6,370 nt of DNA from a virus (taxonomy: Duplodnaviria > Heunggongvirae > Uroviricota > Caudoviricetes): IMG/VR virus record IMGVR_UViG_2737471855_000014; one strand, given 5' to 3'. This document shows, piece after piece, positions 1,933 to 6,275 of the stretch; position 1 is the stretch's first letter, and each line of letters opens with the position of its first letter. Below the pieces are notes generated by a model that saw only the letters and a list, made by a program, of their open reading frames with translations, had not been told where the DNA came from and ran no database searches. The position numbers and the translations under genes were made by a program.

Positions 1933-2182
1933 GGTAATATTAAATCGGAACATTTACATCGCGGAATGTAAAATTTAAATAAAAAGGACTCTTCCATGAG
2001 CCAAAATTCCTGAAATCTTAAGGGTAAGATAAAAGGTCTTAATCAGAATGACACGTTTTATTAATAAATAAAGCTATTCTTTCATTGCTGTGTTTTTCTT
2101 TACAAAAGTAATCCTTGCTATGGGTGGTTAATCATGCGTTAATGGTGTTCTGGTTTGTTACAAATTTATCTGAAGCAGTCAT

Positions 2183-2191
2183 TGTTATAAT
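2183..2191 (+). promoter_or_regulatory. candidate extended -10 promoter element (TGnTATAAT) upstream of cspI
   Basis: TGTTATAAT at 2183-2191, a perfect TATAAT with upstream TG, in an AT-rich leader. It would give a roughly 95-nt 5' UTR before cspI, in line with the long leaders of cold-shock genes. No good -35 hexamer at 17 bp spacing. Sequence pattern only. Confidence 0.3.
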
Positions 2192-2294
2192 TTTATTATT
2201 TGTACCTCTTGAGATTTCCTTGTTGGTTTTTCTCTCTGATATTTTTTTTCGGACCATTCTGCCCAAGGGCTAATTTCTTCAAAAGGTAATAATT

Positions 2295-2507
2295 ATGTCT
2301 AACAAAATGACTGGTTTAGTGAAATGGTTTAACCCTGAAAAAGGTTTTGGTTTCATCACGCCGAAAGATGGCAGCAAAGATGTGTTTGTCCATTTCTCAG
2401 CAATTCAGAGCAACGATTTCAAAACATTAACTGAGAATCAGGAAGTTGAATTTGGTATTGAGAACGGACCTAAAGGTCCTGCCGCTGTTCATGTAGTGGC
2501 GCTTTGA
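2295..2507 (+). CDS. cspI: cold-shock protein, CspA family (S1-like cold-shock domain)
   Basis: 70-aa [73 protein letters not shown] with RNP1 (KGFGFI) and RNP2 (VFVHF) motifs. AAGGTAA Shine-Dalgarno-like sequence upstream. Matches my recollection of Qin CspI. Confidence 0.9.
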
Positions 2508-2711
2508 GGTAGACAATATTACAAACCATATTCACTTTAGATGCCCGTGTTGTCATGGTTCCCAGTATAGAACATCATCTTTTGATGTTTCTGACATGAA
2601 TCCTTTCGGGGCAAAATGTATCTTTTGTAAATCAATGATGATTACATTTGATAATATTTCACAATACTTAAATGCCAGCCGTCTGTCGTTGGATTTAAAA
2701 AAGTGAAAATG

Positions 2712-3009: not shown

Positions 3010-3180
3010 TTTGATGCTATTGCATTGATAATTCAGGAAAATTCTCTTTGTCTGTTTGTGTAAAATTTAGACTATCGTATGTTGATTATTGCGATGTTTC
3101 ATCTTATCTTTTACACGTTTGCACCATATAATCGACTTACTGTGTAACTGGAAAGTCATAACAGACTAAAAGAGGAAATG

Positions 3181-3354
3181 ATGAATATTGAAAACTTAAA
3201 AACAAAAGCAGAAGCAGATATTTCTGAATATATAACAAAAAAAATTATTGAACTTAAGAAAAAGACCGGGAAAGAAGTTACCAGTATTCAGTTTACCGCA
3301 CGGGAAAAAATGACGGGTCTTGAAAGCTATGATGTCAAGATTAATTTAATCTGA
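3181..3354 (+). CDS. gnsB: GnsA/GnsB-family small protein
   Basis: 57-aa ORF MNIENLKTKAEADISEYITKKIIELKKKTGKEVTSIQFTAREKMTGLESYDVKINLI, found by hand and too short for the supplied track. AGAGGAA 4-5 nt before the ATG at 3181. A TATAAT hexamer at 3127-3132 may be its -10. Matches my recollection of GnsB. Confidence 0.85.
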   Translation: MNIENLKTKAEADISEYITKKIIELKKKTGKEVTSIQFTAREKMTGLESYDVKINLI

Positions 3355-3383
3355 TGTATTCAATAATAAAATTTATCCATAAA

Positions 3384-3406
3384 CCTCGTTTTTACGGGGT
3401 TTTGTT
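3384..3406 (+). terminator. candidate rho-independent terminator after gnsB
   Basis: CCUCG (3384-3388) pairs with CGGGG (3395-3399) including one G-U wobble, with a 6-nt loop, followed by TTTTGTT. Lies 30 nt after the gnsB stop. Confidence 0.4.
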
Positions 3407-3468
3407 ATATTTGAATGGTTCCGAATATCTAAATCACAATTGTTGATGGTTTTTATTAAACCAATGCA

Positions 3469-3497
3469 GTCCGGCTCAGGAGTGAGAGAAGCCGGAC
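3469..3497 (-). terminator. hairpin just 3' of ydfO; possible weak or bidirectional terminator
   Basis: Perfect 8-bp stem GTCCGGCT (3469-3476) with AGCCGGAC (3490-3497) around a 13-nt loop. It sits 8 nt beyond the ydfO stop and is convergent with gnsB. The U-tract is poor on both strands. Confidence 0.3.
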
Positions 3498-3505
3498 GTT
3501 ATGGT

Positions 3506-3916
3506 TTAGCGTGGTAAGATCTGTGTAGTTTTCTGGATGCTTTCAGTAAATAGTAATGAATTATCAAAGGTATAGTAATATTTTTTTTGTTCGTGGATAT
3601 TTGTAACCCACCGAAAAACTCCTGCTTTAGCAAGGTTTCTTCTGTATTCCTGAAATGTGATCTCTCTGGATTTCAGCTTATTAGAGGTCGTTTCTATAAG
3701 ATGCCTATCCTTTGAAAATTTGACAGACACAATGTTTTTTAGGCCCTTTAATAACACTGTATTATCATTTTTTAATACAATATGAACATTCTCTGTGGCT
3801 AAATAGTAAATGTAATGTGAGACATTGTGACGTTTTAGCTCAGAATAAAACCATTGATAGTTTAAATCGTTTCGAACTTTATCAAATATTTGTTTAAAAA
3901 TGACTACCTGATCCAT
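3506..3916 (-). CDS. ydfO: YdfO-like protein of unknown function (DUF1398 family)
   Basis: Track ORF 3506..3931, with the start set at the second Met (MDQVVIFKQ...) to give 136 aa. GGAAGG Shine-Dalgarno 7 nt upstream of that ATG. Visibly AT-rich codon usage. Matches my recollection of Qin YdfO (136 aa); lambda carries a homologue near its right end. Confidence 0.85.
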
Positions 3917-3973
3917 AGATAAACCTTCCATGTGATATGAGGGGGCGTAGTCTGCACGATTATCTAAATTGCT

Positions 3974-4207
3974 TCAATCTGGTCTGACCTGTTTTCTGAG
4001 CAATTCAGTAATGTCACTCTTTTCTTTGTTTGCTTCAGAAGAAACTCTTTTTTCTGAGCACAGTCTCCGGCGGCAGGCTTCAATGACCCAGGCTGAGAAA
4101 TTCCCGGACCCTTTTTGCTCAAGAGCGATGTTAATTTGTTCAATCATTTGGTTAGGAAAGCGGATGTTGCGGGTTGTTGTTCTGCGGGTTCTGTTCTTCG
4201 TTGACAT
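3974..4207 (-). CDS. ynfO: small ribbon-helix-helix (Arc/MetJ/CopG-like) putative DNA-binding protein
   Basis: 77-aa ORF. Arg/Thr-rich N-terminus, then an RHH-like core: beta-strand NIRFP, helix NQMIEQINIALEQ, Gly turn, helix NFSAWVIEACRRRL. Sits 57 bp upstream of ydfO on the same strand. The opposite-strand track ORF 3969..4235 is rejected. Confidence 0.7.
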   Translation of the reverse strand: MSTKNRTRRTTTRNIRFPNQMIEQINIALEQKGSGNFSAWVIEACRRRLCSEKRVSSEANKEKSDITELLRKQVRPD

Positions 4208-4374
4208 GAGGTTGCCCCGTATTCAGTGTCGCTGATTTGTATTGTCTGAAGTTGTTTTTACGTTAAGTTGATGCAGATCAATTAATACGATACCTGCGTC
4301 ATAATTGATTATTTGACGTGGTTTGATGGCCTCCACGCACGTTGTGATATGTAGATGATAATCATTATCACTTT

Positions 4375-4570
4375 ACGGGTCCTTTCCGGTGATCCGACAG
4401 GTTACGGGGCGGCGACCTCGCGGGTTTTCGCTATTTATGAAAATTTTCCGGTTTAAGGTGTTTCCGTTCTTCTTCGTCGTAACTTAATGTTTTTATTTAA
4501 AATACCCCCTGAAAAGAAAGGAAACGACAGGTGCTGAAAGCGGGCTTTTTGGCCTTTGTCGTTTCCTTTC
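4375..4570 (+). other. lambda-type cohesive end site (cosQ-cosN-cosB) in joined, prophage-form configuration
   Basis: 4371-4406 (...ACGGGTCCTTTCCGGTGATCCGACAGGTTACG) matches my recollection of the lambda right end. 4407-4418 GGGCGGCGACCT is the 12-nt cohesive-end sequence, followed by CGCGGGTTTTCGCTATTTATGAAAATTTTCCGG (lambda left end). cosB shows three (C)GTTTCC/GGAAACG Nu1-binding R elements near 4458-4466, 4519-4528 and 4557-4566, with an AT-rich IHF-type stretch at about 4474-4505. Confidence 0.85.
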
Positions 4571-4595
4571 TCTGTTTTTGTCCGTGGAATGAACA

Positions 4596-5141
4596 ATGGA
4601 AGTCAACAAAAAGCAGCTGGCTGACATTTTCGGTGCGAGTATCCGTACCATTCAGAACTGGCAGGAACAGGGAATGCCCGTTCTGCGAGGCGGTGGCAAG
4701 GGTAATGAGGTGCTTTATGATTCTGCCGCCGTCATAAAATGGTATGCCGAAAGGGATGCTGAAATTGAGAACGAAAAGCTGCGCCGGGAAGTTGAAGAAC
4801 TGCGGCAGGCCAGCGAGACAGATCTCCAGCCAGGGACTATTGAGTACGAACGCCATCGACTTACGCGTGCGCAGGCCGACGCACAGGAGCTGAAAAATGC
4901 CAGAGACTCCGCTGAAGTGGTGGAAACCGCATTCTGTACTTTCGTGCTGTCGCGGATCGCAGGTGAAATTGCCAGTATTCTCGACGGGATCCCCCTGTCG
5001 GTGCAGCGGCGTTTTCCGGAACTGGAAAACCGACATGTTGATTTCCTGAAACGGGATATCATCAAAGCCATGAACAAAGCAGCCGCGCTGGATGAACTGA
5101 TAACGGGGCGCACTTTGACGGTGACCAGAGCGGCACGGTGA
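4596..5141 (+). CDS. nohA: terminase small subunit (lambda Nu1-like) with a non-native C-terminal 12 residues
   Basis: 181-aa ORF starting MEVNKKQLADIFGASIRTIQNWQEQGMPVLRGGG, the Nu1 winged-HTH DNA-binding domain. Nu1-like through residue 169 (...AALDELI), then TGRTLTVTRAAR in place of lambda's PGLLSEYIEQSG. Directly downstream of cosB, as in lambda. Symbol is by position; the exact Qin paralogue is uncertain. Confidence 0.85.
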   Translation: MEVNKKQLADIFGASIRTIQNWQEQGMPVLRGGGKGNEVLYDSAAVIKWYAERDAEIENEKLRREVEELRQASETDLQPGTIEYERHRLTRAQADAQELKNARDSAEVVETAFCTFVLSRIAGEIASILDGIPLSVQRRFPELENRHVDFLKRDIIKAMNKAAALDELITGRTLTVTRAAR

Positions 5142-5401
5142 ATGGTGTCACGCCGCCAGCAGTTCAGCACCTGACCGCAGAAGTCACCGCAGACAGCGGG
5201 GAATACCAGGTGCTGGCGCGCTGGGACACGCCGAAGGTGGTGAAGGGGGTGAGCTTTATGCTTCGCCTGACCGTGGCAGCGGACGACGGCAGTGAGCGGT
5301 TGGTCAGCACGGCCCGGACGACGGAAACCACATATCGCTTCACGCAGCTGGCGCTGGGAAATTACAGGCTGACAGTCCGGGCGGTAAATGCATGGGGACA
5401 G
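5110..5401 (+). pseudogene. internal fragment of a J-like tail tip/host-specificity protein (gene remnant)
   Basis: Track frame 5138..5425 (GTG start) encodes [86 protein letters not shown]. By recollection this matches an internal region of lambda J (over 1100 aa). No credible start or Shine-Dalgarno. Bounded by junctions with Nu1 upstream and stf downstream. Confidence 0.65.
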
Positions 5402-5700
5402 CCGGTGCACATACCCATTCGATGACATTTGTTTCAGGTGGTTCCAGTGGTGCTCCGGGAAGTGGATCACCTGATTATTCTAAATACAGTGTTAACACTT
5501 CTTCTGCAGGCGCTCATACGCACTCTGTATCGGGTACTGCTGCAAGCGCAGGTGCACACGCACATACTGTCGGTATTGGTGCTCATACGCACTCCGTTGC
5601 GATTGGTTCACATGGACATACCATCACCGTTAACGCTGCTGGTAACGCGGAAAACACCGTCAAAAACATCGCATTTAACTATATTGTGAGGCTTGCGTAA
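5392..5700 (+). pseudogene. C-terminal fragment of a side tail fibre protein (Stf-like), possibly still translatable from a fortuitous ATG
   Basis: 102-aa frame with repeated G-A-H-T/A-H-S/T motifs and the conserved fibre C-terminus ...[24 protein letters not shown]. The N-terminal shaft portion of the fibre is absent. The stop overlaps the tfa start (TAATG at 5698-5702). Confidence 0.7.
5404..5622 (+). repeat. tandemly reiterated HxH tail-fibre repeat units (coding repeats)
   Basis: Five related 18-21-nt units encoding G-A-H-T-H-S-like peptides: GGTGCACATACCCATTCG (5404-5421), GCAGGCGCTCATACGCACTCT (5506-5526), GCAGGTGCACACGCACATACT (5548-5568), GGTGCTCATACGCACTCC (5578-5595) and GGTTCACATGGACATACC (5605-5622). 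Confidence 0.6.
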
Positions 5701-6275
5701 TGGCATTCAGAATGAGTGAACAACCACGGACCATAAAAATTTATAATCTGCTGGCCGGAACTAATGAATTTATTGGTGAAGGTGACGCATATATTCCGCC
5801 TCATACAGGTCTGCCAGCAAACAGTACCGATATTGCACCGCCAGATATTCCGGCAGGCTTCGTGGCTGTTTTCAACAGTGATGAGGCATCGTGGCATCTC
5901 GTTGAAGATCATCGGGGTAAAACGGTTTATGACGTGGCATCAGGGGACGCGTTATTTATTTCTGAACTCGGTCCGTTACCGGAAAATGTTACCTGGTTAT
6001 CGCCGGGAGGGGAATATCAGAAGTGGAACGGCACAGCCTGGGTGAAGGATACGGAAGCAGAAAAACTGTTCCGGATCCGGGAGGCGGAAGAAACAAAAAA
6101 CAGCCTGATGCAGATAGCCAGTGAGCATATAGCGCCGCTTCAGGATGCTGTGGATCTGGAGATCGCAACGGAGGAAGAAACCTTGTTGCTGGAAGCCTGG
6201 AAAAAGTATCGGGTGTTGCTGAACCGTGTTGATACATCAACTGCACCGGATATTGAATGGCCAGCACTGCCGTAG
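5700..6275 (+). CDS. tfaQ: tail fibre assembly protein (lambda Tfa-like chaperone)
   Basis: 191-aa [54 protein letters not shown]..., which closely matches my recollection of lambda Tfa along its length. The start overlaps the stop of the fibre fragment. Ends at TAG 6273-6275. Confidence 0.85.

Follow-up and report, generated by a model that had tools for sequence, protein, structure and literature searches.

ynfO and ydfO at the cos end of the Qin prophage: probably two independent lambdoid accessory genes brought side by side

Results

The ynfO-ydfO locus

The genes ynfO and ydfO lie next to each other in a window of 6,370 nucleotides (nt), that is, the whole stretch of DNA analysed here (IMG/VR virus record IMGVR_UViG_2737471855_000014), which is the late-region end of the Escherichia coli Qin cryptic prophage. 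Megablast of positions 3300-4500 retrieved 100% identical E. coli chromosomal DNA annotated gnsB, ydfO and ynfO, with matches in 4838 of the 5426 complete E. coli genomes. Both genes are already annotated in E. coli K-12 and both protein families are already in Pfam; the identities that a first-pass annotation had given them from the sequence alone agree with RefSeq and with the family matches described below. In RefSeq, the plus strand carries essD, ydfR, rrrQ, rzpQ, cspI, ymcF, ynfR, ynfN and gnsB in this order; after gnsB come ydfO and ynfO on the minus strand, and then nohA, encoding a Nu1-type small terminase, tail-fibre fragments and tfaQ. Thus, ynfO and ydfO are read in the direction opposite to essD-ydfR-rrrQ-rzpQ and nohA. 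They are found in the interval from the lysis genes to the cohesive-end sequence cosN, which lies 200 nt from the ynfO ATG. Because of this position of cosN, ynfO is the open reading frame (ORF) closest to the right chromosome end, and strands, lysis genes and cosN all agree with the antisense cargo position next to cos noticed at first sight (Table 1).

With the RefSeq start of ydfO at 3916, the spacer is 57 nt long, exactly the gap initially claimed. The contrast in base composition is also real, the GC content being 44.4% in ynfO and 31.4% in ydfO against 43.6% in the whole window. Each gene had been credited with its own Shine-Dalgarno sequence; this is clear for ydfO, with GGAAGG placed 8 nt 5′ of the ATG at 3916 (the ATG at 3931 has no such motif), and weak for ynfO, which has only GGGG, 9 nt upstream of its ATG. 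ynfO and the 136-amino-acid ydfO share a reading frame with the ynfO TGA alone between them, and a protein cluster of 761 members (P0122; window 3506-4207, minus strand) presents them as a 233-amino-acid 'fusion'. Because a W stands at the position of the ynfO TGA, the cluster is put down to gene calling under a TGA=Trp code, and the fusion is not real.

Table 1. Coordinates of the features in and around ynfO and ydfO (aa, amino acids; nt, nucleotides)
Feature	Coordinates	Strand	Remarks
ynfO coding sequence	3974..4207	-	77 aa; DUF3950 / YlcI-YnfO, probable ribbon-helix-helix; from ORF list, Pfam, NCBIfam and RefSeq
ydfO coding sequence	3506..3916	-	136 aa; DUF1398; the RefSeq start is an internal ATG at 3916
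ydfO alternative start	ATG at 3931 (ORF 3506-3931)	-	141 aa
YnfO conserved core, residues 12-48	4064..4174	-	putative strand TRNIRFP, helix A, GSGN turn, helix B NFSAWVIEAC
Qin-type YnfO lineage-specific C-terminal tail, residues 50-77	3977..4060	-	Qin-lambda homology breaks here
ynfO-ydfO spacer, 57 nt	3917..3973	-	homologous to the stretch just upstream of lambdap78 in lambda
PdhR-box-like AACAGGTCAGACCAGAT	3977..3993	-	overlaps the last ynfO codons at the junction; coordinates read from the sequence
Weak candidate ydfO promoter, TTGAAG-17 nt-CAGACT	3949..3977	-	inferred by hand reading, below scan threshold
Stable hairpin right after the ydfO stop	3469..3497	-	likely transcript end or stabiliser; a second small hairpin follows
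Terminator-like hairpin between convergent gnsB and ydfO	3381..3402		scan; fold weak on minus strand
ynfO 5′ region, presumed promoter/operator/leader	4208..4320	-	highly conserved
Inverted repeat ATCAATTAATACG-N7-CGTCATAATTGAT	4277..4309		13-nt arms, 11/13 complementary; repeat search
cosN cohesive-end sequence GGGCGGCGACCT	4407..4418	+	exact match, once in the window; aligned to the lambda right end

Both genes belong to known families and are under purifying selection

YnfO matches Pfam PF13132 (DUF3950; E 2.7e-21, 75.6 bits against a cut-off of 25) and NCBIfam NF041551 (YlcI_YnfO_N; E 3.3e-9, 36.6 bits against a cut-off of 30) and, both curated cut-offs being passed, is a member of the DUF3950/YlcI-YnfO family. 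YdfO covers the complete Pfam PF07166 profile (DUF1398; positions 1-119 of 119, E 9.5e-46, 155.2 bits against a cut-off of 22) and is 98.6% identical to the nuclear magnetic resonance (NMR) structure 2HH8 of the PDB, with 2 of 141 residues differing; it is a DUF1398 protein (YbcV/YdfO/YcgX) and the protein of that structure. In the core of ynfO, the ratio of non-synonymous to synonymous substitution rates (dN/dS) was 0.03-0.09; for ydfO, compared with lambdap78 of phage lambda, it was 0.19. Both are real genes under purifying selection.

The pairing of ynfO with ydfO is not conserved

In lambda (NC_001416) the DUF1398 gene is lambdap78 (47042-47575, minus strand), and an intact YlcI/YnfO-type ORF of 64 amino acids lies at 48109-48303 on the same strand (L002 3610-3804, minus), about 200 bp from the right cohesive end. 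The latter is absent from the RefSeq annotation, whose last feature is lambdap79, a gene on the opposite strand that separates the two homologues. DLP12 shows the same order as lambda, namely ylcI, ybcW, ybcV and bor. When the window was aligned with lambda, the stretch from cos through the first two-thirds of ynfO was 100% identical and ydfO about 80% identical, and some 590 bp of lambda that include lambdap79 had no counterpart in Qin. It is because this ~590-bp ybcW segment is absent that ynfO ends 57 nt from ydfO in Qin. As regards the lambda annotation, lambdap78 is given a GTG start that adds 41 residues at the N terminus and reaches into the control region upstream. A coevolution study reported fitness-affecting 'intergenic' mutations downstream of lambdap79, which may fall in or near the 64-amino-acid ORF. 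Low-frequency ylcI 'mutations' in two resequencing papers were considered and set aside as uninformative; our guess is that they reflect mis-mapping of paralogue or lambda DNA.

The distribution of the two families points in the same direction. In the phage collection, YnfO-type genes occur in 152 records and YdfO-type genes in 43, so that at least 109 of the 152 lack YdfO, these counts being rough as are all distribution counts given here. Not one of the 66 Stx (Shiga toxin)-converting phages with YnfO has YdfO; in Stx phage YYZ-2008, for example, Rz lies on one side of a solitary DUF3950 gene and an HNH endonuclease with a Terminase_2 small subunit on the other, while in ev207 the YnfO-type gene is followed by bor. 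More divergent DUF3950 members occur next to the integrase in phage satellites. Others follow cytochrome bd genes, a TonB-dependent receptor (with CopC alongside) or cdtABC, or lie close to a fimbrial usher. Two of these divergent genes (L089 5001-5180 and L091 5001-5225), one after the cytochrome bd oxidase genes and the other between the TonB-dependent receptor and CopC, sit in chromosomal loci that both contain DUF2946 and may represent a subfamily linked to copper or metals.

Of the complete E. coli genomes, 4184 carry the conserved part of ynfO, at 9861 places in total and as many as 12 in a single genome, and full-length matches of the ydfO/ybcV type are found in only 3011 genomes; the remaining ydfO matches are ycgX, a chromosomal DUF1398 gene that adjoins bluR with no RHH (ribbon-helix-helix) gene nearby. 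One prophage (L118 1298-2600) carries ydfO, a ybcW-like gene and gnsB next to a different small terminase; no intact YnfO-type ORF was detected there, only a remnant of the sequence downstream of such an ORF, and the DUF1398 gene therefore persists in that prophage without the RHH gene.

Within the Qin lineage the two genes are close neighbours. The scan of IMG/VR with YnfO kept only near-identical Qin-type loci, a sample therefore unfit to test linkage across lineages and used for allele mosaicism only: 78 of 80 loci with a 77-amino-acid YnfO (96-100% identical) have YdfO 59-62 nt downstream, and the YdfO alleles fall into one class of 95-100% identity (44 loci) and another of approximately 70-75% (34 loci). 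A conserved YnfO beside YdfO proteins about 25% apart indicates module shuffling rather than co-evolution. The ynfO-ydfO pairing is not conserved and the two genes are not a unit. The co-occurrence across prophages that had been suggested as a check fails, given that the pair is split in lambda and DLP12 and that most YnfO-type genes have no YdfO, and both allele mosaicism and unconserved linkage uphold the caveat entered at the outset against a tightly co-evolved operon.

A word on sampling is needed here. The genome-contig scan for YdfO relatives returned mostly lambda control-DNA contamination, and only Escherichia and Shigella loci were used. Most of the non-enterobacterial 'homologues' (Pseudomonas, Kitasatospora, Brevibacillus, Staphylococcus, a spider and others, including L098-L131) are on contigs of about 3.5 or 48.5 kb with the lambda gene order at 100%, often with frameshifts from sequencing errors; they look like lambda control DNA, and this contamination inflates the apparent host range of both families.

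A junction in the last ynfO codons and the signals around ydfO

The Qin junction lies within the final codons of ynfO, which makes the C-terminal tail of Qin-type YnfO a product of that junction. It ends in a sequence that lambda has upstream of its DUF1398 gene; the tail of the lambda YnfO-type protein is TSEKRAYTSIKSDEE, and tails differ again in Stx-type and satellite members. The spacer is unstructured (RNA fold z = +0.87) and the terminator scan found no terminator-like site between ynfO and ydfO, which would allow the ynfO transcript to continue into ydfO. Genomic SELEX (systematic evolution of ligands by exponential enrichment) lists a PdhR site for ynfO>ydfO, and a homologous PdhR box lies upstream of ybcV in DLP12, where deletion of pdhR cut ybcV mRNA 10-fold (PMC7660256). 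The junction sequence of Qin is the same stretch as the reported box. The lambda counterpart of the candidate ydfO promoter reads TTGAAA, 17 nt, CAAACT. Downstream of ydfO, the hairpin at 3469..3497 is predicted to fold with -19.7 kcal/mol (z = -5.4), a value that none of 200 shuffles equalled, and lambda also has a hairpin at the homologous position. For ybcW and ylcI, a pair of convergent, overlapping transcripts has been reported.

YnfO resembles ribbon-helix-helix proteins

The DNA encoding the YnfO core (4064..4174) is 100% identical in lambda. In the family alignment I15, R16, F17, I25, F37, S38, W40, V41, A44 and C45 are near-invariant. An exhaustive search of 1.84 billion representatives gave only 120 relatives, many of them error-ridden reads of lambda DNA, and the genuine divergent ones share the pattern K-x-IRFP-h-x-L-I-E-x-I ... 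NFSAWV-x-EAC. The AlphaFold2 monomer, of moderate confidence (predicted local distance difference test score, pLDDT, 68), places helices at 19-32 and from 37 onward with GSGN between them. Foldseek of this model gave 21 matches, the top PDB match being the Arc repressor, which was not significant, and the others including HicB, ParD2, the RHH ParB of pCXC100, MatP and Reg576. Alignment of family residues 12-33 with Arc 9-30 by hhalign (E = 0.012, not significant alone) puts YnfO N14 and R16 on the DNA-contacting N11 and R13 of Arc, and a profile search of PDB sequences returned a CopG-family chain (E = 0.34) in register with helices A and B. Taken together, these sequence and model comparisons agree, and RHH is the best reading of the YnfO fold, although membership is not proven.

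The ynfO 5′ region contains a candidate operator

The region 4208..4320 is identical to lambda. When Qin, phage 2H10, ev207 and a decayed copy from E. coli were compared, it held no more than 3-4 substitutions, and the flank closer to cos diverged more. It contains the inverted repeat listed in Table 1. Its exact 8-mer half-site occurs three times in the 48.5-kb lambda genome, each time no more than 280 bp from the homologous ORF. If YnfO binds DNA as a dimeric RHH protein, this repeat is its best candidate operator. A Fur-box-like sequence, GTAGATGATAATCATTATC, is also present in the stretch from the ynfO control region to cosN, at 4351-4369 (lambda 48447-48465), identical in lambda, with 16/19 matches to the Fur consensus and a perfect TGATAAT-G-ATTATCA palindrome; Fur-type matches of at least 15/19 arise in 3% of shuffled windows.

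DUF3950 genes of phage satellites

In two satellites, DUF3950 is fused to the first ~50 residues of a Terminase_2 small subunit (TerS) (P0328, L005 6001-6363; P0310, L090 4714-5103), both Pfam matches being above threshold. The C-terminal TerS-type domain of these fusions shares 64-66% identity with the DNA-binding N-terminal domain of the Stx-phage-type TerS and a lower 53% with the TerS that the satellite itself encodes. The fusion gene runs against the satellite replication operon and is preceded by 3-4 iterated repeats of 9-12 nt (GTTTAACAC-like or GTGCACAAACAC-like). The L005 satellite also has a stand-alone 60-amino-acid DUF3950 gene (5590-5772), divergent from the main operon, in whose upstream region (5445-5589) two perfect GGTACGTACC palindromes bracket TATAAT; as read from the sequence, GGTACGTACC-TATAAT-GGTACGTACC looks like a textbook autoregulated-operator layout. 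Such palindromes and iterated repeats are hallmarks of small autoregulated DNA-binding proteins, and for this reason we propose YnfO as an orphan RHH regulator. In the same locus (6641-9776), the satellite integrase stands beside a 61-amino-acid N-terminal fragment of a prophage TerS; HNH comes next, and then a DUF3950 gene belonging to the prophage. The satellite may therefore have inserted in or beside the prophage packaging module.

YdfO is a soluble protein with misleading labels

YdfO is a soluble, AT-rich, horizontally shuffled DUF1398 protein. A PDB profile search with its alignment retrieved 2HH8 only. Our structure model, built from 15 sequences that are all at least 70% identical, failed (pLDDT 47, template-modelling score 0.34 to 2HH8); no fold was deduced from it, and its weak Foldseek neighbours (DUF2874, PRY-SPRY and others) were set aside. 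An internal duplication (helix plus three strands, twice) was also considered, and hhalign of the two halves was not significant (E = 0.15). The ydfO mRNA is induced by ionic liquid, 12-fold on arrays and 116-fold by quantitative PCR, and responds to over-expression of DicC. Knock-down of lambdap78 by CRISPR interference classed the gene as non-essential, with no plaque phenotype on the laboratory host; the DUF1398 gene is dispensable for lambda lytic growth.

Is any function established for either protein? The statement of the first-pass annotation that there is none still holds, since the one published claim for YdfO is a mix-up. PMC4077768 attributes oxidative-stress resistance to over-expression of YdfO, a link that is often repeated; its source, Wang et al. 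2010 (PMC3105296), reports resistance for YfdK, YfdO and YfdS of prophage CPS-53, with ydfO absent from the main text, and the claim was rejected as a confusion of the gene names YdfO and YfdO. Nor are the database labels of DUF1398 credible, be it 'head protein' (PHROGs phrog_413 and RefSeq phage records) or 'putative envelope protein' (older phage records), because the gene runs against the late operon, its product was a soluble NMR target and knocking down the lambda homologue gave no plaque phenotype.

Neighbouring genes

The gene convergent with ydfO is gnsB (3178-3354, plus strand), which bears the RefSeq name 'GnsA/GnsB family addiction module toxin' and is the sole gene in the neighbourhood with a toxin label. 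On the other side of cosN, nohA (4596-5141) encodes a full-length Nu1-type small terminase of 181 amino acids; the large-terminase gene is gone, and the sequence passes straight into fragments of tail tip and tail fibre genes at about 5100-5700. Since the large terminase is lost, cos is unusable by the Qin prophage on its own. Two Rfam families were found above the gathering score, a cspA-type thermoregulator leader at 2149-2534 (plus strand), before cspI, and IS009 within tfaQ at 6043-6241 (plus strand).

Discussion

Why are ynfO and ydfO neighbours in Qin? The explanation that we favour, and hold to be probably correct, is that each is a lambdoid accessory gene in its own right, that the two came together in the Qin lineage, and that YnfO is an orphan RHH regulator. 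In lambda and DLP12 the YnfO-type gene is followed by ybcW/lambdap79 on the opposite strand, the DUF1398 gene and bor; the Qin lineage, some members of which are functional phages, lacks the ybcW segment, and this would have let ynfO meet ydfO. According to this model, YnfO would belong to the small dimeric DNA-binding proteins of the Arc/CopG type and act as a regulator without a partner, not as an antitoxin. Its gene would be transcribed leftward from the conserved 110 nt between its ATG and cos, and the protein would be made while late transcription is off, either in lysogens or immediately on DNA entry. There it may bind the inverted repeat and control its own promoter. Through an accident of layout, ydfO would come partly under ynfO control by co-transcription, and would at the same time keep the PdhR-box region that lies upstream of its homologues.

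Several observations weigh against parts of this proposal. The RHH assignment of the first-pass annotation is favoured by the agreement of the top Foldseek match with Arc, the hhalign register on Arc and the CopG match; no RHH match by Foldseek, hhalign or PDB profile search, however, reached statistical significance. Residues 14-18, where the strand should be, are unstructured in the AlphaFold2 monomer, which is what the monomer of a strand-swapped dimer would show if the model is right. The inverted repeat is only modestly unusual, since 27 of 2000 shuffles (1.4%, p about 0.014) matched it, and its role could instead lie in cos function. The putative DNA-reading residues of YnfO recur in the Stx-type homologues, whose upstream region is completely different, so that simple autoregulation is weaker as a family-wide rule. 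A scan for consensus sigma-70 promoters found none anywhere in 3300-4600, upstream of either gene or elsewhere, and no transcription start data were found for ynfO or ydfO. Finally, ydfO is listed with a low transposon insertion index and as 'essential only by TraDIS' (transposon-directed insertion-site sequencing; PMC5821084). The same list also holds other AT-rich horizontally acquired genes and several antitoxins; we would guess that AT-richness or binding of H-NS accounts for the low insertion density in ydfO. The whole Qin prophage can be deleted.

The arrangement of a small RHH gene before a gene of unassigned function had at first suggested a toxin-antitoxin (TA) module or a dedicated regulator-effector pair, and this suggestion does not survive as a general statement. 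A type II TA module should appear as a conserved adjacent pair across lineages, and ynfO-ydfO does not: the homologues in lambda and DLP12 are separate units with an intervening gene, and DUF1398 occurs alone as ycgX. Nor do the partners diverge together, YnfO being 96-100% identical across the 80 loci beside classes of YdfO about 25% apart. No known toxin or defence family lies downstream: YdfO matches DUF1398 only in Pfam and nothing relevant in NCBIfam, neither protein matches a toxin family there, and the PADLOC defence models match neither YnfO nor YdfO. YdfO was over-produced alone in E. coli for the NMR structure, and the ASKA over-expression clone of the paralogue ybcV grew and showed a glycogen phenotype, which is indirect evidence against toxicity. 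A narrower version, in which a TA-like or regulator-effector pair is specific to Qin-type prophages, the junction-derived tail of YnfO binding YdfO and the RHH domain repressing a shared promoter, strikes us as very unlikely. Apart from the points just given, adjacency follows trivially from the origin of the tail, the tail is itself 96-100% identical while the neighbouring YdfO differs by 25%, and the low insertion density lies in ydfO and not in ynfO, the opposite of a toxin/antitoxin pattern. It is even harder to believe that both genes are decaying, functionless leftovers of a cryptic prophage. It is true that Qin is defective, with the large terminase subunit missing and fragmentary tail genes, and that neither gene has an established phenotype; but both ORFs are intact with low dN/dS and are carried by plaque-forming phages including lambda, and the ydfO mRNA is regulated.

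Two further explanations start from the position of ynfO at the right end. The right cohesive end of lambda is the first DNA into the cell, and in lambda-type genomes the YnfO-type ORF starts about 200 nt from this end and reads inward, with a very conserved 5′ region and variable cargo downstream (DUF1398, bor or nothing). By analogy with Aca-type autorepressors, YnfO might thus control the promoter of an early-entry counter-defence cassette whose variable cargo would be YdfO or Bor. We regard this as unlikely, as Bor is a lysogenic-conversion lipoprotein with its own expression and no anti-defence factor, an opposite-strand gene breaks any such operon in lambda, Stx phages have no downstream cargo at all, and lambdap78 could be knocked down without a plaque phenotype on the laboratory host. 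With similarly slim prospects, YnfO-family proteins could act at the packaging site, near cos/pac or together with the small terminase, instead of being ordinary transcription regulators. The gene does adjoin a packaging module in two systems, cos-Nu1 in lambda and HNH plus Terminase_2 in Stx phages, and satellites fuse the family to an N-terminal small-terminase domain 64-66% identical to that of the Stx-phage type. Yet the gene, running against the late operon, is in a poor position to be expressed while DNA is packaged, members occur at loci without packaging genes (cytochrome bd, TonB receptor/CopC, fimbrial and cdt), the position may merely reflect a recombination boundary between modules, and Qin has no large terminase. 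The wider idea of YlcI/YnfO as a conserved lambdoid and satellite factor acting at the packaging site or on the first-entering DNA is one we would not expect to prove right; it retains its small chance because of the right-end ORF, the two unrelated packaging neighbourhoods and the satellite fusion to a TerS domain. If it were true, a YnfO-type protein would occupy or compete for the terminase recognition site and could block or redirect the packaging of related phages, and lambda would encode an overlooked, unannotated player in packaging or early entry, a new function in the best-studied phage.

Under the explanation that we prefer, of independent genes juxtaposed, the pair is a real but ordinary find: known genes that became neighbours via rearrangement. 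Its interest lies mainly in what it corrects. Tempting mis-annotations are removed (TA pair, 'head protein' and 'envelope protein'), a functional claim for YdfO is returned to YfdO, to which it belongs, and the lambda reference annotation turns out to omit a conserved 64-amino-acid ORF that lies 200 bp from the right cohesive end and is subject to strong purifying selection.

How do ynfO and ydfO compare with systems already described? Their counterparts in Qin of E. coli K-12 have essentially the same sequence and layout, the copies in the window being a slightly different allele. At the right end of lambda and DLP12 both families are present on the same strand between bor/Rz and cos, with the difference that an opposite-strand gene stands between them, that the YnfO tail is another one and that bor is absent in Qin. 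YnfO resembles the Arc/Mnt/CopG RHH repressors in being small, in its basic N-terminal arm and in a putative strand-helix-turn-helix pattern whose turn reads G-x-x-N/S; with Arc in particular it shares the top Foldseek match and the register of the DNA-reading strand. The conserved IRFP...NFSAWV.EAC pattern suits an RHH core of about 45 residues, with strand, helix A, tight turn (G-x-S/T/N) and helix B. YnfO differs in lacking a significant score, and its gene adjoins cos instead of lying in the immunity region. Type II TA modules with RHH antitoxins, such as ParD-ParE, RelB-RelE and CopG-family antidotes (e.g. 5ceg), differ in that here linkage is not conserved, the partners do not diverge together, and YdfO belongs to no toxin family, occurs alone elsewhere and is tolerated when over-produced. 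There is also a likeness to the lambdoid morons bor and lom. As with these, ynfO and ydfO are optional between modules and variable among close relatives: DUF1398 is present in 43 phage records and absent from Stx phages and ev207, which share the flanking genes. The atypical base composition of ydfO and an orientation that allows expression independently of the late operon are moron-like too. Where morons have their own promoter and terminator, the scan found no consensus promoter for the pair, and ydfO is accompanied by a PdhR box, a weak candidate -35/-10 and a hairpin after its stop.

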